Source of the DNA: a bacterium
Lineage (GTDB): Bacteria; Patescibacteriota; Patescibacteriia; JACQRZ01
DNA: 64,000 nucleotides
Direction of reading: 5' to 3'
Assembly (NCBI GenBank): GCA_030688365.1
Contig: JAUYIE010000004.1
Location: forward strand, 5,931-69,930
In this document: one piece after another, positions 19,447 to 64,000 of the stretch
Layout of the letters: each line of letters begins with the position of its first letter
Numbering within the stretch: the first letter of the stretch is position 1
The notes under the pieces: model-generated
The model's database searches: none
Told to the model about the DNA's origin: nothing
What the model saw: the letters and a program-made list of their open reading frames with translations, nothing else
Program-made: the position numbers and the translations under genes

Positions 19447-19457
19447 AGAGAAAATAT

Positions 19458-19946
19458 CTATCGAGTTATTTTAATAGTCGCGCCCTGTTCAGCACTAGGG
19501 GCACAAACAGTCACGCGACTGTTGGCAGTCCTCACGATGTAATAACCAGTGCCATCACTTGACGATACACTGGGATCAATCGGCATGCTGGTCAAATATT
19601 TTTCACCGGTCGTCAAAACACTCAAGTCAACTCCGGCAGAGCACGTACCTGTCGCAGTCGCCTTGCAGACTTCATCCTCTGTATCAAGCGCACACGTACT
19701 GATCGGAATAGTGGGTAATGTACCATTATTATCAATACTATATTGATATACGGCATCAAGTATCGTACGAATATCTGATCGGCGCTGTGCATTTCGAGTA
19801 TCTCCAAGCTGTTTGCTAGGGTTTAAAGCTAAAATAACAATGCCTGCCAAGATAGCAATTGCCGCAACCACCAACAAAATTTCCAAAAGTGTAAAGCCTG
19901 CTTCAGTATTTTTTTTTGTTGATTTCTTGTCCAATGGCATCGTCAT
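19458..19946 (-). CDS. Type IV pilin, tandem paralog of the adjacent pilin
   Basis: The N-terminal 60 aa are nearly identical to the 19000-19446 product. The C-terminal half is divergent, including the Cys pair. Confidence 0.8.
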   Translation of the reverse strand: MTMPLDKKSTKKNTEAGFTLLEILLVVAAIAILAGIVILALNPSKQLGDTRNAQRRSDIRTILDAVYQYSIDNNGTLPTIPISTCALDTEDEVCKATATGTCSAGVDLSVLTTGEKYLTSMPIDPSVSSSDGTGYYIVRTANSRVTVCAPSAEQGATIKITR

Positions 19947-29105: not shown

Positions 29106-29171
29106 AGTCGCATGAGTAAATATTTATAAACAAAGTATACTACTATTTTGAAAAAATGGGAATAACTCATA

Positions 29172-29244
29172 AGCCGACGTCGGGGCTCGAACCCGAGACC
29201 TTCTCCTTACCATGGAGATGCTCTACCAACTGAGCTACGTCGGC
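29172..29244 (-). tRNA. tRNA-Thr (anticodon GGU)
   Basis: Reverse-complement cloverleaf: GCCGACG acceptor, anticodon loop AUGGUAA, TTCGAGC T-loop. Confidence 0.8.
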
Positions 29245-36744: not shown

Positions 36745-39700
36745 TTAGGGTTTGGTAGTACAATATGGGTTTATTGTACTGAAATGCTGTGGATCTTCAA
36801 GATTCATACATATTTCGTATCCAGTACCATCTGAAGTCTTATACGTATAGATATGAGAATCTTTCTGCGCCTTAGCAGCATCTGTTCGTAGAGCACTTTC
36901 AACATCGTTCCCATATCCAAAGTCACCATTTTGTGCGTTCCAACATGTCTTTTGATCAAATCCGGAGGGACACAATGGAAATGCCTTGCCTTCTACTTTT
37001 GCCAGTGGGTCAGCGGGAAGGGCTACACGTAATGCGTTACCTAAGGTACTTTGCCAGGACGGCCATGCTGATGTTGATTGTCCTTTTATAAAACTTCCGG
37101 AAGCAAGGGCAGGATACGGTATCGCATTATTTTTAGCATATTTACTCAACAAATACTGCATATCAGCCATATCTGAGAGACGATGTAAATCTCTTCTCAT
37201 TATATCAGGATTGGTATCATGTGCAACACTCATCACCAATTTCATATTTTGCAAAAGACTCGCAAAGATTTGTTGTGTACTACTTTTCGCGCCTACGTTA
37301 TAGGAAAATGAAAGAATATAAAACACGTTATCCGTTCCTTGTATGAAAATGTATACACCCGTACTGTCACGAACAGCCTGATAACCATCAACGAGCGTTG
37401 AAGAAGGGCTTTCTTTCCCTGATTGATGTACGCGATACCATTGATATGCTGAAAGCATATCATTATTTTTCGCAATACGAACTGCAATGACATCACTATT
37501 TTTGGTATCTACAATATTTAAATCCCCTTTTGTAGAATCAGCAAACGGAAAAATAAATTCTTGCTGAAATATTCCTCGATCAGTACTATTGGGATCTACC
37601 TGTATCGGCGGCTTTAGTAAACCAGGGAGTAAATTTGTTGATGTATTTCCTCGGCAATAGTATGACTTAAAATTATATGCGGCAAGACCAGAAACATCTG
37701 TACTGTCAAATTCCCATAGTTCTGAACATAAGTAACTTTTAATTGGAAAATGCTCGGTCTTCACTGGTCCTTTTGTTTGGCACTCTAGCTCCTTTTGAGT
37801 ATCCGTGATTTTGTCCGGAGGATCACATGTTGGATCACGTTGGGTCAACGTTACACTCATACTTGCATTACCACTCGTAGGCATTGCAGTCACCTCAAGA
37901 ATTGATTGATTAGTTGCACCACTAAACTGAATAATACTGTCACCTGTTAATTTCCACTCATATGATTGGACTACTATTTCAGAATCATCATAGGACATAC
38001 CAACTGCCTGATACACATGCTGATTTCCTGGTTTAAAAGGATTTTGATCTCCAATACCACAATCATTACCGGCACAACTGATAAAATCAACATCATTAGC
38101 GGGTAATGAGTCACCATTAATGTAAATTAAAACGTGATCCAAAGGTGCAATCTCATCTCCAACATCAACCGGAATCAAAGAACCGTCGCCCCCATTGTCA
38201 GGAGGTGTGCTGTTGTCAGGAGGTGTGTCGTTGTCAGGAGGTGTGTCGTTGCATGTATATTCAGTAGATGTGACTTCAATAGTATCTAATGTACTATTTT
38301 TATTTGTATCAAGTCCTGTTTCAATTTTTCTTCCTGCATATGGACAATTACTTCCTTTCGGTTCATATGTATCTCTCACAAGACTAAAAATCTGATTATC
38401 ACCAGACCCTGAATTGCACGCGTATTCAGTAGAGCTCACTTCGCTGGAATCCAACGTACCATTTCTATTTGTATCAAGACCAGTATCAGTCCTGCGTCCT
38501 CCATTTTGACAATGGGATCCTGGTGGTTCATCACTGGCAGTAATGAGACGATTTATAGGTAACGGAGACGAACCACCATTATCATTGTCTCCAGACTGAT
38601 TGGTTGGAGGAGGAGTATTGCACGCATATTTTGTAGAAGTGACCTCGTTAGGATCCAAGATACCATCTCTATCAGTATCCAGTCCTGACACTGTCTTCCT
38701 TCCTGCATACGGACAATTACTACCACTTGGTTCGTATGTATTTCTCACCAAATTATAGAGTGTATTGTTCCCGGAACCCGCATTACACGCATACGAGGTA
38801 GCAGTTACTTCTCTAGAATCCAGCACACCATTTCTATTTGTATCCAGACCGGCATCAGTCCTGCGTCCTCCATTTTGACAATGAGATCCTCTTGGCTCGC
38901 TGGTCACTCTTACAAGATTATTGAGGGGAAGTGTGGACGATCCTTGATTGGATGTTGGAGAAACGCCGTTAGGGGTAATTCCTCCCGTAATTTCAATATT
39001 ATATTTTTTATTGCACTGCAACTGTGTCTTTGGAATAAAACGAACTTCTGTGCGGGCATCATCACCGATTCCAACAGTGTTAAATTCAAAATGTCCATTT
39101 GCATTTGGTACTATTCTCATCCTGCTGCGCGCGCTTTCCTCATTGATTACCTGATTAAATGTCACCTTAATAATGCTATTGCAATAAGCGTTAGGAGATT
39201 TTGGTTGGACGTCAATCACTGCCACCTTCTTGGGTGTAGTGGCACATTTTGCATTTACACAATTATTGGATGAACATTGTTGTGGACTATAACACTTTCC
39301 TCCGATCGGCAATCCTCCTTGAACACATTTAGACTCAAAACAGTTATTTGAGATACATTCGTTATTCGCACTACAACTTTCTCCAATTACCTTCAATACT
39401 GATTTACATGTACCTGAACTACACCATAACCCTTCCTTGCATTGAGTGTCCCATGTACAAGCAGCTGTTTCTCCAAGGTCCCCACGCACGCATTTATTCT
39501 CTTCACCACATACACCAGAACTACATTCTTCATTTTTTGAGCAAGATTCATTTAATTGCTTCAATTCACCTGTAAAAAAACTCCAGCGGTATGTACAAGA
39601 AATCACTGTGTTCACGCATGTACCAGTGGTTCTAAATGAACCATCACTACAACAAGTCCGCGACTGATCGCCTGCTGCTACATTACACCTGCCCACCTCA

Positions 39701-40413
39701 AACGGAACCGGATTACTCAAATTGTTATTTCCATCTACAACACGAATATTTCCTGATGTAGTCAGCAAGACAGGTGTTACTGCTTCTATGTATTTATCAG
39801 ACCAACCACCGGGTTGAATCGTGGCATCACCTTTGTCAACTACGAGACGACCTGTTGTCTTGGAAAAATTTTCTCCGTAAACCTTCACTGCAATACCTGC
39901 AGGGCCGTTATCGGGTGAAACTGCGCAAATGCCCGGTGTGGGTGGTGCAGATGTAACAGTAAAAGTATTTGAGTATGATGCGACTTGGCTATCCGCCCGA
40001 TATACCTTGATCGTATATTGCCCGGTTTCAAGACCTTGCGGTACCTTTGCGATCAGATAAGAGTTATGCCATGTTTGACCTTCACAACCACTCACGTTTG
40101 GTTTGTCTGACGGTACCTCAAGCCCGCGACGTACAAAAACCACTTTACCGGGTGTGGATCCAAAATATTGTCCTTGAAGCGTCATATACTGTCCTTTTCC
40201 ACCAGACTCTGGCCAAATCTTTGAAATTCTAGGAGCCCCAATACTAACAGAATCCTCTGCAAAAAGCGCATATGGTGATCGCATCAATAAAAAACCTACT
40301 AGTGCAACTGCAATAACACTGCCAAGTATACCACCTATCGTCATCGTATGAATTGAAAAACGAAATTTGTTCATAAAAATTATTGCAAAGGACCCACGCA
40401 GGATGCAAAACAA
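36745..40413 (-). CDS. Giant Cys-rich surface protein / putative adhesin with IPT/TIG-like domains and internal repeats
   Basis: 1222 aa. N-terminal anchor. Four repeats of GLDTNRNGxLDSxEVT..YACN. PPDN tandem repeats. Many paired Cys. Confidence 0.75.
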   Translation of the reverse strand: MFCILRGSFAIIFMNKFRFSIHTMTIGGILGSVIAVALVGFLLMRSPYALFAEDSVSIGAPRISKIWPESGGKGQYMTLQGQYFGSTPGKVVFVRRGLEVPSDKPNVSGCEGQTWHNSYLIAKVPQGLETGQYTIKVYRADSQVASYSNTFTVTSAPPTPGICAVSPDNGPAGIAVKVYGENFSKTTGRLVVDKGDATIQPGGWSDKYIEAVTPVLLTTSGNIRVVDGNNNLSNPVPFEVGRCNVAAGDQSRTCCSDGSFRTTGTCVNTVISCTYRWSFFTGELKQLNESCSKNEECSSGVCGEENKCVRGDLGETAACTWDTQCKEGLWCSSGTCKSVLKVIGESCSANNECISNNCFESKCVQGGLPIGGKCYSPQQCSSNNCVNAKCATTPKKVAVIDVQPKSPNAYCNSIIKVTFNQVINEESARSRMRIVPNANGHFEFNTVGIGDDARTEVRFIPKTQLQCNKKYNIEITGGITPNGVSPTSNQGSSTLPLNNLVRVTSEPRGSHCQNGGRRTDAGLDTNRNGVLDSREVTATSYACNAGSGNNTLYNLVRNTYEPSGSNCPYAGRKTVSGLDTDRDGILDPNEVTSTKYACNTPPPTNQSGDNDNGGSSPLPINRLITASDEPPGSHCQNGGRRTDTGLDTNRNGTLDSSEVSSTEYACNSGSGDNQIFSLVRDTYEPKGSNCPYAGRKIETGLDTNKNSTLDTIEVTSTEYTCNDTPPDNDTPPDNSTPPDNGGDGSLIPVDVGDEIAPLDHVLIYINGDSLPANDVDFISCAGNDCGIGDQNPFKPGNQHVYQAVGMSYDDSEIVVQSYEWKLTGDSIIQFSGATNQSILEVTAMPTSGNASMSVTLTQRDPTCDPPDKITDTQKELECQTKGPVKTEHFPIKSYLCSELWEFDSTDVSGLAAYNFKSYYCRGNTSTNLLPGLLKPPIQVDPNSTDRGIFQQEFIFPFADSTKGDLNIVDTKNSDVIAVRIAKNNDMLSAYQWYRVHQSGKESPSSTLVDGYQAVRDSTGVYIFIQGTDNVFYILSFSYNVGAKSSTQQIFASLLQNMKLVMSVAHDTNPDIMRRDLHRLSDMADMQYLLSKYAKNNAIPYPALASGSFIKGQSTSAWPSWQSTLGNALRVALPADPLAKVEGKAFPLCPSGFDQKTCWNAQNGDFGYGNDVESALRTDAAKAQKDSHIYTYKTSDGTGYEICMNLEDPQHFSTINPYCTTKP
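38197..38250. repeat. Tandem 18-bp repeat x3 (gtcaggaggtgtg[c/t]cgtt) inside the giant surface protein gene, encoding PPDN(D/S)T
   Basis: Three consecutive near-identical 18-mers read directly from the sequence. Confidence 0.7.
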
Positions 40414-51378: not shown

Positions 51379-51618
51379 TTACTCAATATAAAAATGACTT
51401 TTTAGCTGTTCTTCTCTGATCCATTTCACGCCTGTTTTATATATCGCGAGTTGTGTACCCCTATCAAGAGAGCTGTGATTGGGAACAACAAGTGTTTCGG
51501 TGTGCCCACGTGTTCTACGCAGTTTGATATGACTTCCTTTTTAAGAAATGACGACAAAACCAAAAGAAACAAAAATAGCAACAAGCTCTTTTCCTGACAT
51601 GACCCTCATTTTAGGCAT
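51379..51618 (-). pseudogene. hicA: hicA toxin gene disrupted by an in-frame TAA (minus strand, codon at + 51541-51543)
   Basis: Minus-strand translation gives MPKMRVMSGKELVAIFVSFGFVVIS-stop-KGSHIKLRRTRGHTETLVVPNHSSLDRGTQLAIYKTGV. This is a HicA fold with the GSH..LRR..G...VVP.H motif. The TAA sits exactly where HicA proteins have Q/K before KGSH. Confidence 0.65.
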
Positions 51619-51892
51619 ATTGAGGCTGGATCTCAAAATTAACCAACACTCCAGGGCGCTGGTCAATGCCATATGCCTCCCTGTCTACTACATCTTCAAA
51701 GAAGAGCTCAATTGCCTCTTCAAGATTGTGAATCACCTCATCAACAGTTTTTCCTTGTGTAAAAACAGGTATATCAATGCACTCGCCCACATAGGCATCT
51801 TCGCCTTTATATATTTTCGCTTGGATGATTTTTTTCATAAAGACTCTGTATTTATCCATGAATACCATAGCAGATGTCTGGTTAATTTGCAA
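51611..51892 (-). CDS. hicB: HicB-family antitoxin (UPF0150)
   Basis: KIYKGEDAYVGECIDIPVFTQGKTVDEVIHNLEEAIELFFE matches the HicB N-terminal fold. Immediately upstream of the hicA remnant. Confidence 0.7.
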   Translation of the reverse strand: MQINQTSAMVFMDKYRVFMKKIIQAKIYKGEDAYVGECIDIPVFTQGKTVDEVIHNLEEAIELFFEDVVDREAYGIDQRPGVLVNFEIQPQYA

Positions 51893-51903
51893 CTTCCTCT
51901 TTC

Positions 51904-52080
51904 TTAAGACTTGTCTGCTAGCCTATCTTTAATGAAACCATTTTTCTTCATAAAATTGACGACCGGTTTTGCACATATTTCACACAATTCCTTTCCATTA
52001 CTAAACCATCCTATGCGGACATATATCACGGCACCGTCGGAAATCTCTTTATGACAAATATCACACTGATGTGTCGTCAT
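51904..52080 (-). CDS. Small zinc-ribbon protein (CxxC...CxxC)
   Basis: MTTHQCDICHKE...CEICAKP, 58 aa from the ATG at 52080. Lies between the hicB and vapC modules. Confidence 0.45.
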   Translation of the reverse strand: MTTHQCDICHKEISDGAVIYVRIGWFSNGKELCEICAKPVVNFMKKNGFIKDRLADKS

Positions 52081-52087
52081 AGACAAG

Positions 52088-52140
52088 CATGTTAATGTTT
52101 AGAATCCAAACGTAGCACACGAAAAAATTGAAGGCAAATG
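52088..52140. repeat. Copy 1 of an approximately 53-bp direct repeat (catgttaatgtttagaa...acgtagcacacgaaaaaa.tga.ggcaaatg), about 85 percent identical to the copy at 52925-52978
   Basis: Direct comparison of the two segments. Together they bracket vapBC. Confidence 0.7.
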
Positions 52141-52197
52141 GAGTTCCGCTGTAGGGAAAAAGGTATGAAAAAAGAGGCTTTTTTATGAGCCTCTTTT

Positions 52198-52617
52198 TTA
52201 TACATCCTTTGGTTCGACACGTCTTACCTTTAACTTTTCAAACTCCTTGTCGTAAGATACCACCACGCCATTCTTGATTTCAAGTACCTGCGCGGCTATC
52301 AAAGTGTCAATGAATTTAACTGAATTCCCTTGATACAATTCGAGAGCTTGGAAAAAATCTCCCCCGTCTTTTATGCTCAAATACGACATTGCCACGATAC
52401 CTCCCAATAATTCAACAACATCTTCTTTTTTGAGTTTGTAGAAACTCAAACATGTCCACACAAACTCTGCCAATACGAGTTTGGAGGTGGTTGCTCGAAG
52501 TGTCCCTTCCTGTATGCGCTCGAATAGTCTTTCACAGTCTTTCGCCATCGCTACGTCATCTTTGACGACAAACCGAAGAAAGATATTGGTGTCAAGGAAG
52601 TATCTATTTCCTTGCAT
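52198..52617 (-). CDS. vapC: PIN-domain toxin VapC
   Basis: FLDTNIF N-terminus and conserved acidic residues of the PIN fold. Overlaps the vapB stop. Confidence 0.85.
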   Translation of the reverse strand: MQGNRYFLDTNIFLRFVVKDDVAMAKDCERLFERIQEGTLRATTSKLVLAEFVWTCLSFYKLKKEDVVELLGGIVAMSYLSIKDGGDFFQALELYQGNSVKFIDTLIAAQVLEIKNGVVVSYDKEFEKLKVRRVEPKDV

Positions 52618-52843
52618 ATTTTTTCTCCATACTTGCCCGTGCTTTGAGCGGATTGGTGCGTTTTTTAGGAGTAATGCGACGACCGGACGAAACGAAGTTA
52701 TTCAAGGGAATGAGACGCGCTGCCTTGTTCCCTTTTTCAATCTGCACAGCTACGCGACTATTTTTTCCTAAACGAAGCATATCCCTGATTTCTTTAGGGA
52801 TCGTAATCTGCCCTTTTTGTGTAACGGTGGTATGGTAAGGCAT
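52604..52843 (-). CDS. vapB: AbrB/SpoVT-type antitoxin VapB
   Basis: QKGQITIPKEIRDMLRL swapped-hairpin motif. 14-nt overlap with vapC. Confidence 0.8.
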   Translation of the reverse strand: MPYHTTVTQKGQITIPKEIRDMLRLGKNSRVAVQIEKGNKAARLIPLNNFVSSGRRITPKKRTNPLKARASMEKKYARK

Positions 52844-52879
52844 ATGGGTAAAGTAATACTTACTGTGTATTCCTTACTT

Positions 52880-52908
52880 ATTATGAAACATCCACTTTTG
52901 CATGTCAA
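52880..52908 (-). promoter_or_regulatory. Near-consensus sigma70-like promoter for vapBC (TTGACA-17-CATAAT on the minus strand)
   Basis: Minus strand reads ttgacatgcaaaagtggatgtttcataat, about 40 nt upstream of the vapB start. Confidence 0.4.
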
Positions 52909-52924
52909 GCGGATCAATGAGAAA

Positions 52925-52978
52925 CATGTTAATGTTTAGAACATTAACGTAGCACACGAAAAAAACTGAGGCAAATGT
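52925..52978. repeat. Copy 2 of the approximately 53-bp direct repeat; contains a perfect palindrome GTTAATGTT-TAG-AACATTAAC
   Basis: 9-bp inverted arms with a 3-nt spacer, located just upstream of the vapBC promoter and just downstream of the RT1 stop. The palindrome is degenerate in copy 1. Confidence 0.7.
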
Positions 52979-52979
52979 G

Positions 52980-53984
52980 TTACCCTGTCTCATCCAGTAG
53001 CCAATGATCGTTGAGTATACTTGTCCTTATTTTGTGGGTATTCCCATGTGATAACAGTCCGAGATATGACTGAAGCGTCGCTTCGTTAGAATCATGAGAC
53101 AACTTTTTGAACATTCGCCGTCTTGTTGTCGCCCGCAGTACATGATGATCGGCAAAGTGCACCCAGCCCAAATAATCTACCCCTGACGCAATGGTACGAA
53201 TGCTGACTTTATTGGGATGCAATGAAAGCTTGAGCTTGTCTGATAAAAAATCCTGTATCGGATCAATAGTGCGCTCGAGTATACTTCTATCCTGTGACAA
53301 CAGAACAAAATCATCGGCATATCGGATATAATGTGGCACTCGCATATCGTGCTTGATGTATTGGTCAAATAAATTCATGTATATATTGGCAAACAGTTGC
53401 GATGTAAGATTCCCCAATGGAAGTCCTTTATCACTAGACGATTTAAAACTCCCGATTATTCTTGAAAGCAACCACAATATCTTTCTGTCAGGGATATAAT
53501 CCTCCAATATACAATATAAAACGGCATGATCTATGCTCGCAAAGAATTTTCGTATATCACATTTGAGAACGTAACATGTACGAGTATTGTTCCTGCTTAC
53601 CTTGCACGAGTAAGATGTAAATCGATCCATTGCGCTGTGAGTACCTTTGCCCACACGAGCTGAAAATGAATCAGCGATAAACTTTGTTTCAAAAAAAGGA
53701 TATAATATACGGTGAAGAGCGTGATGTACCACCCGATCGCGCACCTGCGCCTTGTGGATTTCCCGTGATTTTGGATCATTGATATAAAAACGTGTATACG
53801 CGCCATGCATGTACTCACCTGACAATAGCTCCTCATGCAACGCATTGATGTTTTCAAACAGATGATCTCGAAACGCGCGGACATCCCACTTGTTCCGTTT
53901 CCCACATTCAAACTCGAGCCACGCTTCAATCAAATTGTCGTGCGAAATAATATCTTCAAATGTATGTCCCAACAATATTTTCAT
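52980..53984 (-). CDS. Diversity-generating retroelement reverse transcriptase (DGR RT1)
   Basis: RT domains 1-7, with the DGR-specific LPLGNLTSQ (GxxxSQ) replacing the group II intron QGxxxSP, plus YIRYADDFV. 334 aa. A cognate TR/VR pair lies nearby. Confidence 0.9.
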   Translation of the reverse strand: MKILLGHTFEDIISHDNLIEAWLEFECGKRNKWDVRAFRDHLFENINALHEELLSGEYMHGAYTRFYINDPKSREIHKAQVRDRVVHHALHRILYPFFETKFIADSFSARVGKGTHSAMDRFTSYSCKVSRNNTRTCYVLKCDIRKFFASIDHAVLYCILEDYIPDRKILWLLSRIIGSFKSSSDKGLPLGNLTSQLFANIYMNLFDQYIKHDMRVPHYIRYADDFVLLSQDRSILERTIDPIQDFLSDKLKLSLHPNKVSIRTIASGVDYLGWVHFADHHVLRATTRRRMFKKLSHDSNEATLQSYLGLLSHGNTHKIRTSILNDHWLLDETG

Positions 53985-54002
53985 AAAAATCCATTAAGGA
54001 AT

Positions 54003-54010
54003 CCCCCCCC
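54003..54010. repeat. Poly-C homopolymer (8 nt) in the divergent RT1-avd1 intergenic region
   Basis: cccccccc read directly. The equivalent tract in DGR2 is 10 nt. Confidence 0.9.
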
Positions 54011-54031
54011 AAGGCGTCACAAATTCCTATT

Positions 54032-54388
54032 TTGCAAAAAGCCGTAGAAACATACAAACTATGGCATTTGTTCTTACAGCAGATGCCTCGTCTTACTCGA
54101 TTTAGTCTTGGTACAAAAATCGACATATTGTTTACCGACACGTTACAGCTCATGCTCTCTGCGAAATACGCACCACGAGAACAAAAGCTGGAATACATAC
54201 GAACATTGTGCACCAACATAGATGCCATCAAATTCTTTTTGCAAATCGCGTTTGAGCTCAAGGCATTAAGCGCTAAAAAATATTCCAGTGTGTCCATACC
54301 TCTGGAAGAGATCGGAAAAATGGTCGGCGGGTGGAAAAAACAGCTGGAAAAAGAAAATCCTGCCACAAAAACTTCATGGCAGGAATGA
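54032..54388 (+). CDS. avd: Avd-like accessory variability determinant (four-helix-bundle protein, TIGR02436-like), predicted TTG start
   Basis: About 118 aa helical protein with C-terminal IPLEEIGKMVGGWKKQL, matching the Avd/23S-IVS four-helix-bundle family. Paralog at 62879-63295. Adjacent to RT and TR. Confidence 0.8.
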   Translation: MQKAVETYKLWHLFLQQMPRLTRFSLGTKIDILFTDTLQLMLSAKYAPREQKLEYIRTLCTNIDAIKFFLQIAFELKALSAKKYSSVSIPLEEIGKMVGGWKKQLEKENPATKTSWQE

Positions 54389-54399
54389 TACGAGAGAGT

Positions 54400-54523
54400 T
54401 GCTCGAACGCAAGGAAACGATAGTTGTCATTCCAATCACCAGCCAGCTTGTTGAGGTTGAGCTTACGCTTGTCGTTGTTCCTGTTCAACACAGGAGCACA
54501 CAGATCACCGTTCTCATTGCGAA
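54400..54523 (-). repeat. DGR1 template repeat (TR1), 124 bp
   Basis: Aligns base-for-base (offset +499) with 54899-55022. All 20 mismatches are T in TR on the plus strand (A on the minus strand) versus C/G/A in VR. Confidence 0.85.
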
Positions 54524-54785
54524 AATGCACGGAATATCATCTTTGACACCACCCTTTGACTCGCCATCTGGCACATTCTCGGGGTTGAATCGTATTCGGG
54601 GCATTTCAGCCCGCCAATATTCCGCACCAAGTCTCTTCGTAATCGCGAAGCAATCGGGCACACGCTGTATGGTAACAAAAAACGCCATACATTCCGGCTT
54701 CCCAAAAAGCTCCAGAGTTCGACCGCCATGAAGTCGTAACGACATGGATACTTCTCTACTTTCCAAAACTCAGTATATCACGCTG

Positions 54786-54821
54786 AATAAAAAATCCCTT
54801 AATAGTTTGTTCTATCAAGGG
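54786..54821 (-). terminator. Rho-independent terminator downstream of the DGR1 target gene
   Basis: Minus strand: CCCUUGAUAG-aacaaa-CUAUUAAGGG stem (one G-U pair) followed by AUUUUUUAUU. Confidence 0.5.
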
Positions 54822-54876
54822 AAGATAAGGGTCTAAAAATTCAAATTCTATTTCTAAACACTGAGGGACCCAGAGT

Positions 54877-55518
54877 CTAAGTGCCTTCCGAAGAAACCTG
54901 CTCGAACGCAAGGAAACGATAGTTGCCACTCCAATCACCAGCCAGCCCGTGGAGGCCGAGCAACCGCCAGTCGTTGAGCCCGTCCAACACAGGAGCACAC
55001 AGAACACCGCGCCCATCGCGAATTTCAATACCCATCAAACAAACGATTGGATATTTTAATTGTTCATCGGGGTTGTTTATGGCGTACTGTAATATTCTGG
55101 CAGGAGTAGCCTTGATCAAACCTTTTTCTTCGATCTTTTTTTCTGCATCTTCAGTCGAAATTTTTCCCAGATCAAGGATACGGACTTTTAACATTTCTAC
55201 ACCGACAGCTGGATCTATCGGAAACGTTTTTTCATTGATGTGACTGTTTACATAATAAAAATTTACGATTTTGATTTGATCGGAAAAACTCTTGTTGTTA
55301 TCAACTATTATGAGTCCAGAATTATCAACTTTCTTCGAAATTTCATTCAATGAACCGACAATAATTTGAGCAACCTTTTTCCTGCGGTCTGTGTCTTTCA
55401 AATACGCGTCTATGTGGTCATCTGTACCACCTTCATCCAGAATATCATTAAAGATAATTTTCACTACCTCAAAGATCTTTCCGAACAGTTTCAGATAACC
55501 ACTTGTTTTTTTAGCCAT
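54877..55518 (-). CDS. DGR1 variable (target) protein, 213 aa, no signal peptide; VR encodes the C-terminal roughly 41 aa
   Basis: Full ORF. The C-terminus IRDGRGVLCAPVLDGLNDWRLLGLHGLAGDWSGNYRFLAFEQ corresponds to the TR-encoded NENGDLCAPVLNRNNDKRKLNLNKLAGDWNDNYRFLAFEQ. Confidence 0.85.
   Translation of the reverse strand: MAKKTSGYLKLFGKIFEVVKIIFNDILDEGGTDDHIDAYLKDTDRRKKVAQIIVGSLNEISKKVDNSGLIIVDNNKSFSDQIKIVNFYYVNSHINEKTFPIDPAVGVEMLKVRILDLGKISTEDAEKKIEEKGLIKATPARILQYAINNPDEQLKYPIVCLMGIEIRDGRGVLCAPVLDGLNDWRLLGLHGLAGDWSGNYRFLAFEQVSSEGT
54899..55022 (-). repeat. DGR1 variable repeat (VR1)
   Basis: See TR1. The 3' end (low coordinate) has a 26-nt invariant block (putative IMH) ending 22 nt before the stop codon. 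Confidence 0.85.
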
Positions 55519-55724
55519 TTTAATGTACTCCTATTTTCGCCTACTCCTTGCTTTTCCCCTATTTTAGGGTTAGACCTAGAGCTTGCACTTATATATAACA
55601 ATACTAAGATACTTGCATATTTTACCGATTTTGTCAAGATTATGACCACCAAAAGCTTATATTTCGAAAGTGAACGAGTATTATTGAGTATGAGAAAGAG
55701 CTGACAGATATACTGAAGGGCTGT

Positions 55725-55842
55725 TTGATTTCTCTTTTAAAAATTTTATGAGCGAGTCAAGTGTTGGGAAGAAAAGTTGAAACGAGCGAATAGAAGTGAG
55801 GAGGGAGACTTACCTACTCGTTACCACCACCGTCGCCGAACG
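55725..55842. mobile_element. MITE-like element, copy 1: 118 bp with perfect 19-bp terminal inverted repeats (TTGATTTCTCTTTTAAAAA)
   Basis: Left TIR 55725-55743, right TIR 55824-55842 (exact reverse complement). The core is about 80 percent identical to the reverse complement of the core at 61784-61883. Confidence 0.7.
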
Positions 55843-55891
55843 CTTTTTAAAAGAGAAATCAAATACCCCGCTCAAGCAGGACAAACACTCC

Positions 55892-56650
55892 CTATCTCCC
55901 CTTCACCTCAATCCCCACCGGACAATGATCTGATCCCATGATATGTGGTAAGATCGCCACGCTTTTTATAGACGGTAAAAATGATTCTGATACGCAAAAA
56001 TAATCTATCCGCCAGCCAATATTTCTCTGACGTGCCCCTGCCATATAACTCCACCATGTGTACTTATCAGGACTCTCATCAAAGGCGCGGTAACTATCTA
56101 CAAACCCAGCAGAGACAATATTATCAAATCCACCCCGTTCTTCATCAGTAAATCCCGCATTACGACGATTGCTTGCTGGGTTAGCCAAGTCTATCTCTTT
56201 ATGAGCAACATTGAGATCTCCCCCAAAGATCACCGGCTTTTTTGCTTCCAGATATTTGAGATACGCCAAAAAATCTCGATCCCATTGCATACGATATGAT
56301 AGGCGTACGAGATCGCGACGTGAGTTGGGGGTGTACACCGTCACAAGATAGTATTGTGGAAATTCAAGAGTGATGACTCTCCCTTCTTGATCATGACCCG
56401 CGATACCGATACCATGCGCCACGCCGATTGGTTTTTTTCTACTAAAAATGGCAGTCCCCGAGTACCCTTTTTTCTCCGCTGAATTCCAATAATGATGGGG
56501 GTATTCTTTCAAAATCTCATCCACCTGCGATTGGTGCGCTTTTGTTTCTTGGATACACAAAACATCGGGTGCTTCCGCATCCACAAAATCCAAAAAACCT
56601 TTTCCGAGAATAGCTCGGATGCCATTTACATTCCACGAAATAATTTTCAT
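55892..56650 (-). CDS. xth: Exodeoxyribonuclease III (AP endonuclease)
   Basis: [14 protein letters not shown]-terminus and EEP-fold catalytic motifs (IQETK, GDLNV, DH). Confidence 0.9.
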
Positions 56651-56656
56651 AATAGT

Positions 56657-58831
56657 TTATTCTTCCTGTTTCTCGGGAGTGGGTTCGCCATCAGCACCTG
56701 TAGGTTTTTCCCATGACGCGTAGGTGCACTCCGGATATTTATCGCATCCATAAAACATCTTACCGCGTTTTGTTTTCTTTTCTACAACCTGACCTTTACC
56801 ACAATCGGGACATACGATACCCAGTTTTTTCAAACTCAATGAGCGGATGCTTTTGCATTCAGGATATTTACTGCATCCCAAAAACTTCCCAAACCGTCCT
56901 GTCTTGATGACCATCGGCGCTCCGCACTTATCACACGGTTCCGCTTCTTCAATCGCTTTCTTATCTTCCTCTTGTTCTTCTTTGGATTCAATCGGCTTGG
57001 TATTTTTACATTCCGGATAGCCGGTGCAAGCAAAAAATCTTCCAAAGCGACCAATCTTACTCACCATCGGCTTACCGCATTTATCACATACTTCATCGCT
57101 CACCTCTTCCGTGAGTTCCTTTTTTGAGAGCTCTTTATCTTTTTCTCCGAGTAATTTTTTGAACGGGGTATAAAACTCGCGAATGACCGGTACCCAATCC
57201 TTTTTACCATTTGCGACTTCATCGAGATCATCTTCCATGCGAGCGGTAAACTCGTAATCCACGATCTGTGGAAAATGCTCCATCAAAATATCATTCACCA
57301 GCGTTGCCATTTCTGTCGGCTTAAGGCGTCCTTCTTCTTTGATGACATATTTGCGCTCCACGATCGTGCTGATCGTCGGTGCATAGGTGGATGGACGACC
57401 AACACCATGTTCTTCAAGTACTTTGACCAGCCCTGCTTCACTGTATCGTGCAGGTGGTTTGGTAAAATGCTGCTCTGGATCAAATTTTAAAAGATCAAGG
57501 GCGTCATCTTTCTTCACAGCTGGAAGCAGTACTTCTTCTCTATCGGTCTGATACACGCGGGTAAATCCATCAAATTTTTCAATCTGACCGGTAGCACGAA
57601 AAACATACCCGGTAGACTTCTTACTTTTGAGAGTATCAATATCAATCGTCGTCGCTTCATATAGCGCATCCGGCATCTGACTCGCCACACTGCGTCGCCA
57701 TATCAGGTCATAAAGCTTGAATTGAGCGTCAGTGAGGTGTGCTTTCACTGATTCAGGTGTTCGCGACACGAGAGTCGGTCTTATGGCCTCATGTGCCTCT
57801 TGAGCGAGCTTGGATTTTGTCGCATATTTCTTTTCTCCTTTAGCATACTGTGTACCGTATTCAGATTTGATCACTTCTTGTGCTTCAGACAAAAACTTCT
57901 CGGAAAGGTTTACCGAGTCAGTACGCATATAGGTGATATATCCACCATCTTCTTCCGAACCTGCTTCAATACCTTCATAGAGTTGTTGAGCAAACATCAT
58001 GGTCTGCTTTGGTGAAAATCGTAAGCGACGGTTTGCGTCTTGTTGCAACGTAGAGGTAGTAAACGGCGTTGGCGGTTTGCGTGACGTATCTTTCATCGTG
58101 ACTTCTTTGACTGTGTAGTCCGCGCTTTCCAATTTTTTTAAAATATCTTGTGCATCTTTTTCATTTGAAATCTCAAACTTATCAAGCGTCTTTCCATCAT
58201 AGGCGTGCAAACTCGCATGAAATGAAACCGTGGTCTTGTCAGCAACATCAATCTCAATAGTCCAATATTCTTGCGGTACAAACGCTTCTATTTCCTTTTC
58301 ACGTTCCACAACCAACCGCACGGCGACGGATTGCACGCGTCCGGCGGATAGACCTTTGGCTACCTTCCTCCACAAAAATGGCGAGAGTTCATATCCCACC
58401 AGACGATCAAGCACACGACGCGCTTGTTGCGCATCTACCAAATCAAGATTTATCTGGCCTGCGTGTTCCAAGGCATCCATGACTGCCGTCTTTGTAATTT
58501 CATGAAATGCAATACGCTTGATCTTATCTTTTGGTACTTTCAAAATCTCTTGCAAATGCCATGAAATAGCTTCCCCTTCACGGTCTTGATCAGTTGCGAA
58601 ATAGACATCATCAGACGCTTTGGCAAGTTTCTTCAACTCGGTCGCGCGTTTTTGATTTGCTTTGGGGATAACATAATGCGGGGCGAAATCATGTTCAATA
58701 TCTACCCCCATCTCGCTTTTTGGAAGATCGCGAATATGACCAAAAGAAGACTCCACGCGGTAGTCTTTGCCTAAAAATTTGCTGATTGTTTTTGCTTTCG
58801 TTGGAGACTCAACGATGACCAAATGTTTCAT
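56657..58831 (-). CDS. topA: DNA topoisomerase I
   Basis: Toprim N-terminus (LVIVESPTKAK). Catalytic Tyr region. Three C-terminal C4 zinc ribbons. Confidence 0.95.
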   Translation of the reverse strand: MKHLVIVESPTKAKTISKFLGKDYRVESSFGHIRDLPKSEMGVDIEHDFAPHYVIPKANQKRATELKKLAKASDDVYFATDQDREGEAISWHLQEILKVPKDKIKRIAFHEITKTAVMDALEHAGQINLDLVDAQQARRVLDRLVGYELSPFLWRKVAKGLSAGRVQSVAVRLVVEREKEIEAFVPQEYWTIEIDVADKTTVSFHASLHAYDGKTLDKFEISNEKDAQDILKKLESADYTVKEVTMKDTSRKPPTPFTTSTLQQDANRRLRFSPKQTMMFAQQLYEGIEAGSEEDGGYITYMRTDSVNLSEKFLSEAQEVIKSEYGTQYAKGEKKYATKSKLAQEAHEAIRPTLVSRTPESVKAHLTDAQFKLYDLIWRRSVASQMPDALYEATTIDIDTLKSKKSTGYVFRATGQIEKFDGFTRVYQTDREEVLLPAVKKDDALDLLKFDPEQHFTKPPARYSEAGLVKVLEEHGVGRPSTYAPTISTIVERKYVIKEEGRLKPTEMATLVNDILMEHFPQIVDYEFTARMEDDLDEVANGKKDWVPVIREFYTPFKKLLGEKDKELSKKELTEEVSDEVCDKCGKPMVSKIGRFGRFFACTGYPECKNTKPIESKEEQEEDKKAIEEAEPCDKCGAPMVIKTGRFGKFLGCSKYPECKSIRSLSLKKLGIVCPDCGKGQVVEKKTKRGKMFYGCDKYPECTYASWEKPTGADGEPTPEKQEE

Positions 58832-58843
58832 AGCTCTTTGTTA

Positions 58844-59746
58844 TTATATCTTTACATAATACATACTTCCGACGTTTCGCACTACCCCTCGCATTTCCAG
58901 CATCAGCAGTGCGCTACTGACTATGTGGCTTTCACGCTTACATATTTGGATGAGAGTGTCAATATGGACGGGATCACTGCTCATGACCGCCAGTATACTT
59001 GCCTCAACCTCATTTTCCGGGTTACTCTCGGGTCTGGCGTATTCTTTGGGCAATGATAAAAACTCAAACGTGTCAAAAATATCTTGTAGACACGTGACAA
59101 GCTTAGCACCTTTTTTGATCAACATATGAGGACCTTCGGAAAGCGGATCAGTGAGCGGGCCGGGTAAGGCAAACACTTCCCTATTTTGTTCCAACGCACA
59201 CTGCGCGGTGATTAGCGACCCTGATCGTGCCAGTCCTTGAGCAACCAAAACACCAAGAGACATACCGGCGATGATACGATTACGAAGTGGGAAAGAATAC
59301 TTGGCAGGATGCATACCGGGTGGTGATTCTGATACCACCACTCCGCCGTTTTCTATAATACGATGCGCCAAACCCAGATGATCAGCCGGATACATACTCT
59401 CGTCATCAACACCACCACCCACTACAGCGATAGTCGTACCACCGACTTCTAGCGTGCTTTCATGCGCTAACGCGTCCACGCCATAGGCAAGTCCACTCAC
59501 CACAACAAGACCGCTTCGTGCCATATCATGCACCAACGGCGGTAAAATATTTTTACCATAGACACTCATCTTGCGACTACCTACCACGCCAATACCGTGC
59601 CACGGTTGTTTTGGCCATGTCCCACGATACCACAGCTTCTCCGGCGCGCCATGTATTTCTTTCAAAAGTGGCGGATAATCAGGATCGTCAATACTGCATA
59701 CCTTGATGCCTTGTTTTTGTTCTTGCACCTGCGAGTCAACGAGCAT
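58844..59746 (-). CDS. dprA: DNA processing protein A (DprA/Smf)
   Basis: Rossmann-like DprA core (VVVSGLAYGVDALAHESTL...IAVVGGGVD). C-terminal winged helix. Confidence 0.85.
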   Translation of the reverse strand: MLVDSQVQEQKQGIKVCSIDDPDYPPLLKEIHGAPEKLWYRGTWPKQPWHGIGVVGSRKMSVYGKNILPPLVHDMARSGLVVVSGLAYGVDALAHESTLEVGGTTIAVVGGGVDDESMYPADHLGLAHRIIENGGVVVSESPPGMHPAKYSFPLRNRIIAGMSLGVLVAQGLARSGSLITAQCALEQNREVFALPGPLTDPLSEGPHMLIKKGAKLVTCLQDIFDTFEFLSLPKEYARPESNPENEVEASILAVMSSDPVHIDTLIQICKRESHIVSSALLMLEMRGVVRNVGSMYYVKI

Positions 59747-59763
59747 GGAACCATGATAAAAAA

Positions 59764-60327
59764 TTACAAACTCAATTCAAGTCCTTTTTTGATAGTTTCA
59801 AAAACTTCTGGAAGCGCTTTTTTTTCTGTCGCAGAAAACTTACCCAAAACAAACTTTTCTCCTGATATTGTCACTGGTCTTTCAGATGCGACACCAATAC
59901 GCATACGACTAAATTCTTTCGTACCGAGCAAATCAATTATATTTTGCACACCATTGTGTCCTGCCGATGAACGGTTGTGACTTATTTTTATTTTTCCAAA
60001 TGGGATATCTAGTTCATCATGGCTAATCCAAATGTCTTTTGTGATATCGATCGTGCGATGATAGGAAAGATATTTTTTTACCGATGTGCCGGAAAGATTC
60101 ATGAACGTCAATGGCTTGAGAAATGTTATTGACTCATGCTTACCATCATCCCTTGTATATTTTGTTTCGTATGCGATATAAGTCTTGTCTTTTGAGATGC
60201 TTGGTTTTTCGATACGGCCTTCTTCCAGCCATTTTTCCATCAAATAATCTACAGCAAGAAAGCCCGCGTTGTGGCGGGTCGTTTCATACTCTGTGCCAGG
60301 ATTTCCTAAACCTACGATAAGTTTCAT
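59764..60327 (-). CDS. pth: Peptidyl-tRNA hydrolase
   Basis: MKLIVGLGNPG..YE.TRHNAGF signature. Confidence 0.9.
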   Translation of the reverse strand: MKLIVGLGNPGTEYETTRHNAGFLAVDYLMEKWLEEGRIEKPSISKDKTYIAYETKYTRDDGKHESITFLKPLTFMNLSGTSVKKYLSYHRTIDITKDIWISHDELDIPFGKIKISHNRSSAGHNGVQNIIDLLGTKEFSRMRIGVASERPVTISGEKFVLGKFSATEKKALPEVFETIKKGLELSL

Positions 60328-61694: not shown

Positions 61695-61764
61695 ATACGA
61701 GCATTAAAGCATGAAATTGGGAGAAAAGCGAGAGGAAAGAGGTGGTGTATCTCGAGCAGGGTAT

Positions 61765-61902
61765 TTGGTTCTTCTTTTAAAAAGCGTTCGGCAACGGTAC
61801 TGGTAATGAGTGTGTTAATCTCCCTCCTCACTTCTATTCGCTCATCTCAATATTTTCATCGTACATTTGACTCGCTCATAAAATTTTTAAAAGAAGAACC
61901 AA
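61765..61902. mobile_element. MITE-like element, copy 2: 138 bp with perfect 19-bp TIRs (TTGGTTCTTCTTTTAAAAA), inverted relative to copy 1 and overlapping the RT2 3' end
   Basis: Left TIR 61765-61783, right TIR 61884-61902. The last 15 codons of the RT2 ORF (FGSSFKNFMSESNVR) are encoded by element sequence. Confidence 0.7.
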
Positions 61903-62899
61903 ATACCTGCCATCTTACGTCACTCAAACCCCGTCTTATCTTCGCAGTGTTCCCGTGACTCAATAATCCCATATATGACTGCATTTGAGCAGGATCATTC
62001 TTTCCTGCTTTGATATGACGGAACATCCTCTTTTTTGTCGCTGTCCTCAACACTCGATGATCAGGAAAATGTACCCAACCGAGGAAATCAACACCCGATG
62101 AAAATGTTTTGAGAAAAAGCTTGTTGGGATGAAGCTGAAGATGTAGCCGTGAAGATAGAAACTCCTGAATCATCGGGACGAGTGTCTCTAACCATTCTAT
62201 GTCAGATGACAATACCACAAAATCATCAGCGTAACGTATGTAATACCGAGTGTGGGCGGTATGTTTCATAAACTGATCCAATTCATTCATATACACGTTG
62301 GCAAACACCTGTGATGTAAGATTGCCCAGTGGTAAACCGACACCGCGATGAGTCGTATGGAAACTACCGATGATGCGATACAAAAGATCAACAATCCGAG
62401 AATCGGGTATTGATAATTTCAATATATCAATAAGTACCTCATGCGATATAGACGCAAAAAACTTGCATATATCGCACTTGAGTGCCCATGCGGTACGAGT
62501 ATGATTCCTTGAAACGACATATTCCATAGAACGGAATCGATCAAGCGCTTTATGCGTTCCCTTTCCATCTCTGCATGAATACGAATCATGAATAAACCGC
62601 GTATCAACATACGGATACAATATACGATAAATTGCGCGATGGAGTACTCTGTCACGCACCGACGCCTTATGTATCTCCCGTGGTTTTGGATCATTGATGC
62701 GAAACGCCTGGTATGCACCGTGTCTGTATCTATTGGTCGCAAGGTCATGATGCAGTATAATAAGATTACTCATGAGATTCTGCTCAAATTCAATAACATC
62801 ACTGCGACAGGATTTTCCTATACGAAATTCTCGCCATGCCTCAAGGAGATTCTCAAGAGAAATAATATCTTCATACGTATGAATGAATTTTCCGGACAT
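61856..62899 (-). CDS. Diversity-generating retroelement reverse transcriptase (DGR RT2), paralog of RT1 with an element-derived C-terminal tail
   Basis: LPLGNLTSQVFANVYM and YIRYADDFV motifs. About 60 percent identity to RT1 across the full length. Confidence 0.9.
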   Translation of the reverse strand: MSGKFIHTYEDIISLENLLEAWREFRIGKSCRSDVIEFEQNLMSNLIILHHDLATNRYRHGAYQAFRINDPKPREIHKASVRDRVLHRAIYRILYPYVDTRFIHDSYSCRDGKGTHKALDRFRSMEYVVSRNHTRTAWALKCDICKFFASISHEVLIDILKLSIPDSRIVDLLYRIIGSFHTTHRGVGLPLGNLTSQVFANVYMNELDQFMKHTAHTRYYIRYADDFVVLSSDIEWLETLVPMIQEFLSSRLHLQLHPNKLFLKTFSSGVDFLGWVHFPDHRVLRTATKKRMFRHIKAGKNDPAQMQSYMGLLSHGNTAKIRRGLSDVRWQVFGSSFKNFMSESNVR

Positions 62900-63295
62900 A
62901 TCACTAATGTTACCCCCCCCCCGAGGCTTTTACCAGTCCTGCAAAAGATAAAGTCAGTATATATCCTCTGGCATGGATATTATCAGGTACTGCCAAAAAC
63001 TCATCGTTACAGTATTGGGCTTCGCATTGATACTTTATTCGTAGAGCTCATTGAAGCCACCTCCATAGCAGGATTCCTCTCTCGTGAAGAAAAACAACCA
63101 CTCGTGCGCATCGCTATCAGAAAAAATGACACCATAAAAATCTTTCTCATGGTGCTCTGGGAAACAGGATCACTAGAAACAAAACGATATGTCACACTTT
63201 CACTACCCCTAGAAGAAATCGGCAGAATGTTGGGCGGATGGAACGGACAACTACAAAAACAAAACTCTCCCGTCATTGCGAGGGGAGAGAAATGA
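62879..63295 (+). CDS. avd: Avd-like accessory protein (paralog of avd1), start uncertain (ATG 62879 overlapping the RT2 start on the other strand, or CTG 62939)
   Basis: C-terminal LPLEEIGRMLGGWNGQLQKQN aligns with avd1 IPLEEIGKMVGGWKKQLEKEN. N-terminal (L)QKIKSVYILWH aligns with avd1 (L)QKAVETYKLWH. Confidence 0.7.
   Translation: MNEFSGHITNVTPPPRLLPVLQKIKSVYILWHGYYQVLPKTHRYSIGLRIDTLFVELIEATSIAGFLSREEKQPLVRIAIRKNDTIKIFLMVLWETGSLETKRYVTLSLPLEEIGRMLGGWNGQLQKQNSPVIARGEK
62913..62922. repeat. Poly-C homopolymer (10 nt) between the RT2 start and the avd2 core
   Basis: cccccccccc read directly. Lies inside the avd2 ORF if translation starts at ATG 62879, and upstream of it if translation starts at CTG 62939. 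Confidence 0.9.
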
Positions 63296-63301
63296 AGAGA
63301 G

Positions 63302-63436
63302 TTGCGACGGGCAAACAACAAGCGATTGTCGGGATTGAGCATGTTGTCGGGATGAATGTAGTTCGTGTTGAGCCAGAACTCACCATCGTTGAAATTCACG
63401 TTGAACACGTTGGGATCGCCATCGGAGTCCGTAATG
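63302..63436 (-). repeat. DGR2 template repeat (TR2), about 135 bp, starting 7 nt after the avd2 stop
   Basis: Aligns at offset +498 with 63800-63934. 15 of 16 mismatches before the ragged 5' end are T in TR (plus strand) versus N in VR. Confidence 0.8.
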
Positions 63437-63515
63437 TATACCATGCCATCTGTGCCACTGCCTTATGATTACTCACAAAGCTGTATCGAATCTGCGATCA
63501 ATAATCGCCCAGCAT

Positions 63516-63543
63516 AATATACCAAGTATCTTCGTTTTTTGAA
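63516..63543 (-). promoter_or_regulatory. Candidate promoter for TR2 RNA (minus strand TTCAAA-16-TATATT), about 70 nt upstream of the TR2 5' end
   Basis: Read from the sequence. Weak match to the consensus. Confidence 0.25.
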
Positions 63544-63727
63544 TAATCTCAATCACCACACTACCCCCAATCGTAATCAAGGATATTCTGGATGAAGGGA
63601 TACTGGCTTCGGCCGCGGGAAACCATAATCTCCCGCACGATTCACCTAGCGCCACAATCAGTATACCCTTAATTTTCCAAAAAAATATTCCTCGCCATAA
63701 TTATGGTTTGGAATATTATTCAATATT

Positions 63728-63742
63728 AGGTCTAAGAGCTCG
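63728..63742. other. GC-rich hairpin (GCTCGC-ttc-GCGAGC) about 60 nt downstream of the VR2 3' end
   Basis: Perfect 6-bp inverted repeat. A second hairpin (GCGGGA-n10-TCCCGC) lies at 63621-63642. Confidence 0.35.
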
Positions 63743-63795
63743 CTTCGCGAGCAAGTAACAAAGTGCAGAAGAGTTAATCCTCCAAAAACTAAGAG

Positions 63796-64000
63796 CTACT
63801 TGCGACGGGCAAACAACACGCGAGCGTCGGGATCGAGCATGCGGTCGGGATGAATGTAGTCCGCGTAGAGCCAGAACTCACCACCGTCGAAATGCACGTT
63901 GAACACGTCGGGAGCGCCAGCGGAGTCCGTAATGGTATCCATGGCGAGAATAGCCCAGTTTCTGTCGTCTTTTTCTGCTTTTTTCAAAACGACTTCTATT
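63796..64000 (-). CDS. DGR2 variable (target) protein, C-terminal part only; the ORF is open to the window edge and VR2 encodes the last roughly 45 aa
   Basis: C-terminus ITDSAGAPDVFNVHFDGGEFWLYADYIHPDRMLDPDARVLFARRK matches the TR2-encoded ITDSDGDPNVFNVNFNDGEFWLNTNYIHPDNMLNPDNRLLFARRN. Stop TAG at 63796-63798. Confidence 0.7.
   Translation of the reverse strand, partial: IEVVLKKAEKDDRNWAILAMDTITDSAGAPDVFNVHFDGGEFWLYADYIHPDRMLDPDARVLFARRK
63800..63934 (-). repeat. DGR2 variable repeat (VR2)
   Basis: See TR2. Asn (AAC/AAT) codons in TR correspond to D/H/Y/A/R codons in VR. Confidence 0.8.

Follow-up and report, generated by a model that had tools for sequence, protein, structure and literature searches.

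A poly-C tract at the head of avd as a probable translational contingency switch in Patescibacteria DGRs

The poly-C tract found at the junction of the reverse transcriptase (RT) and avd genes in two DGRs of a Patescibacteria contig, and at the same junction in most of their relatives, is probably a contingency switch that acts on the translation of avd and thereby gates mutagenic retrohoming. The length of the tract sets the frame of an upstream ATG relative to Avd, giving an ON state at C9 in DGR1 and at C10 in DGR2 and otherwise an OFF peptide of 23-50 aa. Replication slippage (slipped-strand mispairing) would gain or lose a C at high frequency, and each lineage would continually yield ON and OFF cells. 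In the Bordetella phage DGR, cDNA synthesis requires both Avd and RT (PMC6182149), so loss or gain of Avd would decide in each cell whether mutagenic retrohoming takes place. Patescibacteria are rich in DGRs.

Architecture of the two DGRs

The window, by which we mean the whole 64-kb stretch of DNA analysed here, holds two paralogous DGRs, DGR1 and DGR2, with the following parts:

52980..53984, minus strand: RT1, DGR reverse transcriptase (334 aa; RVT_1)
complement of 53982-53984, minus strand: ATG start of RT1
54032..54388, plus strand: body of avd1, bAvd-like (118 aa counted from TTG 54032)
54393..54523, minus strand: TR1, template repeat (sense strand is the RT strand)
54877..55518, minus strand: target gene 1
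54892..55022, minus strand: VR1, 3' end of target gene 1 (C-terminal end of the ORF)
61856..62899, minus strand: RT2, DGR reverse transcriptase (347 aa; RVT_1; start codon 62897-62899)
62879..63295, plus strand: predicted avd2, a 138-aa ORF through C10 into the bAvd domain
63302..63445, minus strand: TR2
63800..63943, minus strand: VR2 (its target gene runs past the window end)

In both DGRs the order is target/VR, TR, avd on the opposite strand, RT, which is architecture B3, TR-(avd)-RT, with avd placed between TR and RT and on the strand opposite to both. RT1 and RT2 alike match RVT_1 with E about 1e-23 (Pfam), and with the bAvd profile (PF22296) Avd1 reaches 48.4 bits, over the 40-bit cut-off, and Avd2 falls just short of it at 36.7 bits. 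Mismatches between TR and VR fall at plus-strand T (A on the minus, or RT, strand) in 21/24 and 16/19 cases in the two DGRs, and therefore the sense strand of the template is the RT strand. All the marks of a B3 DGR were found, namely an RT with a bAvd-like gene, mismatches at template A and this placement of avd; Wu et al. 2018 (PMC5758913) report the same architecture for 90% of CPR DGRs.

The end of TR1 lies 4 nt from the avd stop codon (54388-54523, minus strand), and B3 relatives are arranged likewise. Because the sense strand of TR is the RT strand and TR ends so close to that stop codon, RNA just downstream of TR is antisense to the 3' part of avd. It is there, immediately downstream of TR, that the Avd-binding 'Sp' segment of the Bordetella phage DGR is located. 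The DGR RNA and the avd mRNA would be complementary here, and antisense regulation is a possibility.

The C-tracts and their conservation

The two tracts lie as follows:

54003..54010, plus strand: C8 homopolymer of DGR1 (G8 on the RT strand), coding Pro-Pro(-Pro) in the avd1 frames
62913..62922, plus strand: C10 homopolymer of DGR2, coding Pro-Pro-Pro

A sequence-only reading of this DNA had reported the C8 at 54003-54010 between divergent RT1 and avd1, in a 47-bp gap (53985-54031), and had reported a C10 at the paralogous spot of DGR2; the sequence bears out each of these points. The gap runs from the RT1 ATG to TTG 54032, the first canonical in-frame start of avd1, and the C10 lies between the RT2 start and avd2. 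The sequence-only reading also took the difference between C8 and C10 as a sign of slippage, but the paralogous RT genes are only 71-75% identical in alignable segments, and because of that distance the difference is not in itself evidence of slippage. C8 and C10 are the only C or G runs of at least 7 in the window. Mononucleotide shuffles gave 0.35 runs of at least 8 per 64 kb, and 19 of 500 shuffles held two or more anywhere; both runs lie at one paralogous junction, and therefore their occurrence is not chance.

RT1 has hundreds of relatives in Patescibacteria (GTDB species genomes), from which the best 80, at 55-61% identity, were taken. The avd side was present in 74 of them, and these together with the two window DGRs make up the 76 loci counted here. 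In all 74 relatives with sequence there, avd is divergent from RT, on the opposite strand. A run of C8-C14 stands at the junction in 61/76 loci (C10 n=27, C9 n=18, C8 n=7, C11 n=7), and 61 of the 63 G/C runs of at least 8 in 505 kb of related loci fall at the RT/avd junction, 55 of these classed automatically and 6 more from loci in which no RT start or no avd could be placed. The two off-junction runs are a terminator-like hairpin (G9 at L062:6071, after pheT and unrelated to the tract) and a run at a contig end.

Four loci free of a C run carry 100% perfect tandem repeats at the site instead, (CTGG)10.2, (TGATTGC)11.1, (TGGCGGC)6.6 and (GT)10.5, and one further lineage (P0185) has (CA)6-7 at the junction. 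The repeat units seen at the site are thus 1, 2, 4 or 7 nt long and never 3 or 6. Replacement of one non-triplet unit by another at a single site is expected under selection for frame-shifting mutability and not of a sequence-specific element.

Two minor features accompany the junction. On the RT strand the motif cgTTAAAAG recurs 1-3 nt past the G-tract (for example in L001, L007, L018, L035 and L061); it is kept at the nucleotide level in differing reading frames, makes a poor -10 box and has the wrong spacing for a ribosome-binding site. One contig (L015:1-49) opens with at least 49 C just upstream of RT, and this run is either an artefact of assembly at the junction tract or that tract in extremely expanded form.

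The tract within the avd reading frame

The region has been described as intergenic, but comparison with relatives puts the start of the avd frame most likely upstream of the tract, inside RT. Read on the avd strand, Avd conservation in the relatives begins 0-3 codons past the tract with the motif (R/K)LLP[VIL]L[QE]K (RLLPVLQK in DGR2), the tract itself is read as Pro-Pro-Pro in the avd frame, and the Pfam bAvd profile begins at the tract edge. Neither DGR2 nor many of the relatives have an ATG, GTG or TTG between tract and conserved motif, and in the relatives the avd frame, as assembled, often meets a stop just upstream. With Avd homology starting right past the tract and no start codon in between, translation must therefore cross the tract, which is most likely part of the 5' coding region of avd rather than a spacer between genes.

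The start that recurs upstream is an ATG exactly antisense to an RT His codon (residue 7 or 8), 21-24 nt inside RT. In DGR1 it is the following feature, which the first 7 codons of RT1 overlap head-to-head:

53964..53966, plus strand: putative avd1 start ATG, antisense of RT1 His7 (CAT), 21 nt inside RT1

The corresponding avd2 ATG (62879) is antisense to RT2 His7. Three independent statistics bear on this start. The RT His codon is CAT in 47/47 loci, compared with 60% of the His codons in the rest of these genes (p=1.9e-10). From RT codon 2 to the codon before His, the antisense stops TTA, CTA and TCA occur in 0/245 codons vs 188/5301 (p=4e-4), a depletion also seen among leucine codons taken by themselves (TTA+CTA 0/34 vs 129/503, p=1e-4). 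Between the RT start and the tract, stops make up 10/340 codons in frame from the ATG, compared with 77/624 in the other two frames (p=2.4e-7). The upstream ATG and its open frame are therefore selected, not incidental. Where the gap is longer, an intergenic ATG just ahead of the tract takes its place, and an ATG-initiated ORF enters the tract in 61/62 loci. Avd and RT most likely overlap head-to-head, with the tract intragenic to avd; C8 and C10 sit 13 and 11 codons past the putative ATG, directly before the Avd domain.

We infer the use of this ATG from the codon statistics; no Shine-Dalgarno motif was found before it. Past the tract, TTG 54032 is the sole in-frame canonical start of avd1. 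Because it is the Leu codon of the conserved PILQK motif it would be a weak fallback start at best, through which some Avd1 could be made in the OFF state.

Hexamers of the form T[AG]nnnT (e.g. TATCTT, TAATAT) occur 7 and 10 nt before the avd ATG, in 31/45 loci each. In the window the avd-side hexamers are at about 53951-53956, and the signal is confounded by the conserved RT E-D-I-I-S codons. Taken with the TAnnnT that stands 7 nt ahead of the ATG on the RT side (below), they suggest that both avd and RT may be leaderless, with face-to-face promoters.

Public avd calls in this clade are often missing or short (68-108 aa vs about 130-140 aa), probably because the avd start falls within opposite-strand RT or is not in frame. 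In one locus (L111) the gene caller chose a 129-aa overlapping form of avd.

Assembled ON and OFF states

Translated from ATG 62879 through C10, DGR2 reads into a 138-aa Avd (MNEFSGHITNVTPPPRLLPVLQK...), the ON state. From ATG 53964 through C8, DGR1 ends in a 27-aa peptide, MSQQYFHKNPLRNPPPRRHKFLFCKKP (53964..54047, plus strand), the OFF state, and a C9 introduced in silico restores a 141-aa Avd. The predicted N-terminal peptides of Avd from the putative start are MSQQYFHK.../MNEFSGHITNVTPPPR. DGR2 is ON as assembled and DGR1 is one C short of ON; homopolymer lengths in short-read assemblies can err by one. An in-silico length series put DGR1 ON at C6/C9/C12 and DGR2 at C7/C10/C13, every other length giving 23-50 aa. 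In the closest relative of RT1 (L149, 71% identity), the DGR1 leader recurs with C9 and the ORF runs on unbroken, MSQQYFHKTLVGNPPPNASQIPILDKAVEAYKLWH....

Assembled phases are spread almost evenly across species, with about 24/62 loci ON and 14/16/9 over the three phases, which fits a neutral fast switch and also a tract whose phase is irrelevant. Where the repeat is missing altogether, in loci L004, L008, L024, L046 and L060 and in lineage P0198, avd is in frame with the upstream ATG in every case (6/6, p=0.0014). One of these, L046, has kept PPP, coded by the interrupted CCCCGCCGCCG, and looks like a locked-ON allele.

Length polymorphism among contigs with identical RT

A scan of metagenomes with the window's own tract flanks gave 0 hits, and the contig index had no record of the exact RT1 protein. 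Variation in tract length was looked for in related lineages, by comparing contigs that encode identical RT proteins in ten of them. Flanks are identical within each lineage (about 150 nt displayed), except for one or two SNPs in P0010 and P0198. Lengths at the site, the length predicted to be ON and the share of contigs that are ON were:

P0017: C10 in 8 contigs, C9 in 3; ON at C9 (133 aa); 3/11 ON
P0115: C10 in 3, C9 in 1; ON at C9 (130 aa); 1/4 ON
P0237: C8 in 1, C9 in 5, C10 in 1, C11 in 2; ON at C10 (135 aa); 1/9 ON
P0161: C9 in 3, C11 in 1; ON at C10; 0/4 ON
P0185: (CA)7 in 4, (CA)6 in 3; ON at (CA)8 or (CA)5; 0/7 ON
P0010: C9 in 9; ON at C10; 0/9 ON
P0103: C7 in 7; ON at C6 or C9; 0/7 ON
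P0045: C6 in 4; ON at C6 (129 aa); 4/4 ON
P0127: (CCAG)3 in 7; ON as assembled (134 aa); 7/7 ON
P0198: no repeat in 6; ON as assembled (137 aa); 6/6 ON

In these related lineages the comparison of tract lengths proposed by the sequence-only reading came out in favour of a switch: length is polymorphic among contigs with identical RTs. Long repeats vary in 5/6 lineages and short or absent repeats in 0/4, and this confinement of variation to long repeats agrees with the prediction from slipped-strand mispairing. A metagenome scan with the P0017 flanks added one more copy, a C10. In the long-repeat lineages OFF lengths predominate; this excess, taken with the uniform phases, is consistent with rapid switching that is almost neutral and leaves most cells OFF.

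Across contigs, variability of VR gave no clear link to the predicted state. P0045 (ON) is variable and P0103 (OFF) is invariant but apparently clonal; P0010 (OFF) is variable and P0017 (mixed) nearly invariant. All 9 contigs of P0010 have the OFF length C9, yet VR differs greatly among them, and diversification therefore took place in a lineage with an OFF consensus.

Some peculiarities of these lineages are recorded here. In P0010 (L091-L099) RT is without its usual ATG, and its gene call begins at a TTG that lies two codons ahead of the conserved His. In P0017 (L081-L090) four contigs carry a 71-nt segment, 567-637 nt upstream of the RT start, that is missing from five near-identical ones, which may reflect an assembly collapse around TR/VR or real structural variation; the same lineage has a cluster of 13 linked differences about 1350-1380 nt upstream.

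A switch on avd and its alternatives

The tract is a perfect repeat within an ORF, near its 5' end, with a unit that is not a multiple of 3, as in translational contingency loci, and the polymorphism typical of such loci was found in the 5/6 related long-repeat lineages given above. If the switch is real, DGR activity would be stochastic, heritable and reversible by subpopulation, a form of bet-hedging on whether to hypermutate at all, which could explain inactive-looking metagenomic DGRs beside diversifying close relatives. The ON or OFF state could be read from sequence and activity predicted from metagenomes; avd would prove to be systematically mis-annotated in the clade, its start overlapping RT and often out of frame; and contingency loci would be found in a vast bacterial radiation that is mostly uncultivated, and would control a new class of function. 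We entertain more tentatively, as something we would not expect to hold, a wider scheme in which one hypermutable repeat would govern both genes, through the frame of avd and the spacing to a -10 box of a leaderless RT, with several combined Avd/RT states, and in which most Patescibacteria DGRs would be two-tier, a random and reversible mutator switch picking the cells that hypermutate.

That the tract makes the DGR a slipped-strand, phase-variable on/off system had been proposed in the sequence-only reading, and this part has gained support: the site is kept in 61/76 loci, perfect repeats stand in for it elsewhere, and lengths differ where RT and flanks are identical. The mechanism then proposed, promoter spacing, fares less well, since no sigma-70-type -35/-10 pair lies across either tract and the evidence favours a shift of the avd frame. 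On that mechanism the length of the G-tract would set the -35/-10 spacing of RT (or avd), and so transcription. We regard it as unlikely, although in every case the tract is 1-50 nt upstream of the RT start (most commonly 13 nt) and in 11/53 loci, including DGR2, a TAnnnT stands directly past the G-tract and exactly 7 nt before the RT start. Hexamers were listed for 12 loci of the '+13 class', 11 loci have TAnnnT at this position, and the hexamers of DGR2 (TAACAT), L059 (TAATAT) and L031 (TACTAT) resemble the -10 of a leaderless RT mRNA. The DGR2 element is:

62907..62912, minus strand: -10-like TAACAT, abutting the 3' side of G10, 7 nt before the RT2 ATG

A search for -35/-10 elements spanning the tract nevertheless found none at DGR1 or DGR2. 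In the TAnnnT class the best -35 at 15-19 nt matches 3-4/6 positions and is not conserved; the TAnnnT arrangement is absent from DGR1 and most loci; and a position matrix built over the 16 nt that follow the G-tract is low in information. Promoter spacing would also leave unexplained the repeat-free loci that are in frame (6/6), the non-triplet units and the conserved antisense ATG with its frame. For avd the tract cannot be a promoter spacer, because it is downstream of the putative avd start codon; an effect on RT2 transcription is possible. Terminator scans around both tracts found nothing spanning them. A role of the tract as Shine-Dalgarno sequence of RT was rejected, as it stands 13-30 nt from the start codon and in many loci a GAGG or AAGG is nearer.

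Next, and improbable in our judgement, is recoding, in which the ribosome (tRNA-Pro on CCC-C) or RNA polymerase would slip on the tract and yield a fixed low, constitutive supply of Avd whatever the length in DNA. C runs code for poly-proline, which is ribosome-stalling and shift-prone; many assemblies are out of frame, and the one all-OFF lineage with VR diversity (P0010) is also what recoding would produce. Programmed frameshifting, however, requires a fixed frame, and all three phases are similarly frequent; the tract can be replaced by 2-, 4- or 7-nt repeats, or lost with the ORF in frame; and DNA length genuinely differs among conspecific contigs. Transcriptional insertions are reported mainly in A and T runs (PMC5574713), which also counts against recoding. 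Under the contingency switch, ribosomal or transcriptional slippage on C9-C10 could make the OFF state leaky.

Very doubtful is a requirement for the G/C run itself, whether as part of the DGR RNA, a G-rich structure or a protein site, or for a poly-proline linker in Avd. The tract is a pure homopolymer with a narrow mode (9-10) conserved across very divergent Patescibacteria, and L046 retains PPP despite a broken tract, as such a requirement would predict; against this, lineages with an unrelated repeat or none, and no prolines, have intact avd, RT and TR/VR, a protein constraint would give mixed Pro codons in these AT-rich genomes, and length varies within lineages. Nor does the region point to a known RNA family, an Rfam search of 51500-64000 returning chance hits below threshold only.

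Chance or an assembly artefact has a negligible claim: homopolymers are error-prone in short reads and the C49 of L015 looks artefactual, but the same site recurs in both paralogs and in 61/76 loci from independent projects and assemblers, and chance would have to overcome the shuffle expectation of 0.35 such runs per 64 kb.

Comparison with known contingency loci

The putative switch resembles the intragenic poly-G/C contingency loci of Campylobacter (PMC8355987), Neisseria (hmbR/hpuAB, PMC3786947) and Haemophilus in having a run of about 8-11 nt near the 5' end of an ORF, in which a change of one nt swaps the full-length for a truncated product, in being polymorphic in close relatives and in showing ON and OFF states mixed among genomes. 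It differs in that the tract affects a targeted-hypermutation accessory protein, where the known loci act on surface or modification genes; its hosts, Patescibacteria with a free-living or episymbiotic life, are unlike the host-adapted pathogens of those loci; and the tract-bearing leader is antisense to the start of the divergent RT. The DGR switch is a prediction from sequence. The DGR tract would work like the intragenic loci of pathogens, with differences in the target controlled, the hosts and the overlap with RT.

In Neisseria meningitidis porA and opc a poly-G/C tract lies between -35 and -10, and in Haemophilus influenzae hifA/hifB a (TA)n repeat lies in overlapping divergent promoters. 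As in repeats of the hifA/hifB type, the DGR tract lies between two divergent genes, one tract could act on both, and in the DGR2 class a -10-like box abuts it. Unlike porA/opc and hifA/hifB, it has no matching -35, and the frame evidence points to translation of avd as the chief target. A further comparison of the promoter-spacer type is nadA, with distal repeats (PMC2791445).

The survey of Wu et al. 2018 (PMC5758913) contains neither 'homopolymer' nor 'phase' and speaks of a frame shift solely for a VR example; its description of B3, compared with ours, gives no repeat at the avd-RT junction, no head-to-head overlap and no on/off phases. A full-text search of the literature, with the CPR survey of Paul et al. 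2017 outside its scope, returned nothing linking DGRs or Avd with simple-repeat phase variation or homopolymers. Like the contingency loci of phages (bioRxiv/PMC12633550), the DGR tract would be a hypermutable repeat used for bet-hedging outside the classical pathogens; unlike it, those loci concern other genes and hosts and have no link to DGRs.

Other repeats and RNA genes in the window

A 153-nt inverted repeat, 82% complementary, joins 55724-55876 and 61751-61903. One arm consists of the last 48 nt of RT2 and 105 nt downstream, and the other lies upstream of target gene 1; the pair may be what remains of a third RT 3' end or the footprint of a recombination that links both DGRs. A 64-nt direct repeat (52077-52140 vs 52914-52977, 81%) contains the hairpin AACATGTTAATGTT...AACATTAACGT; one copy directly follows the RT1 stop, the other is 837 nt further along, and the repeat bears no relation to the sequence downstream of RT2.

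Elsewhere in the window two direct-repeat pairs, 281 and 201 nt long, 73-75% identical and spaced 369-479 nt, lie at 38249-38898 and 19123-19914. The pair at 38249-38898 falls inside a 1222-aa ORF (36745..40413) with internal protein repeats, and that at 19123-19914 covers an ORF (19458..19946) and its upstream region. Genes for tRNA-Thr(TGT), tRNA-Tyr(GTA) and tRNA-Thr(GGT) at 28017-29244 (minus strand) account for repeat family D8.
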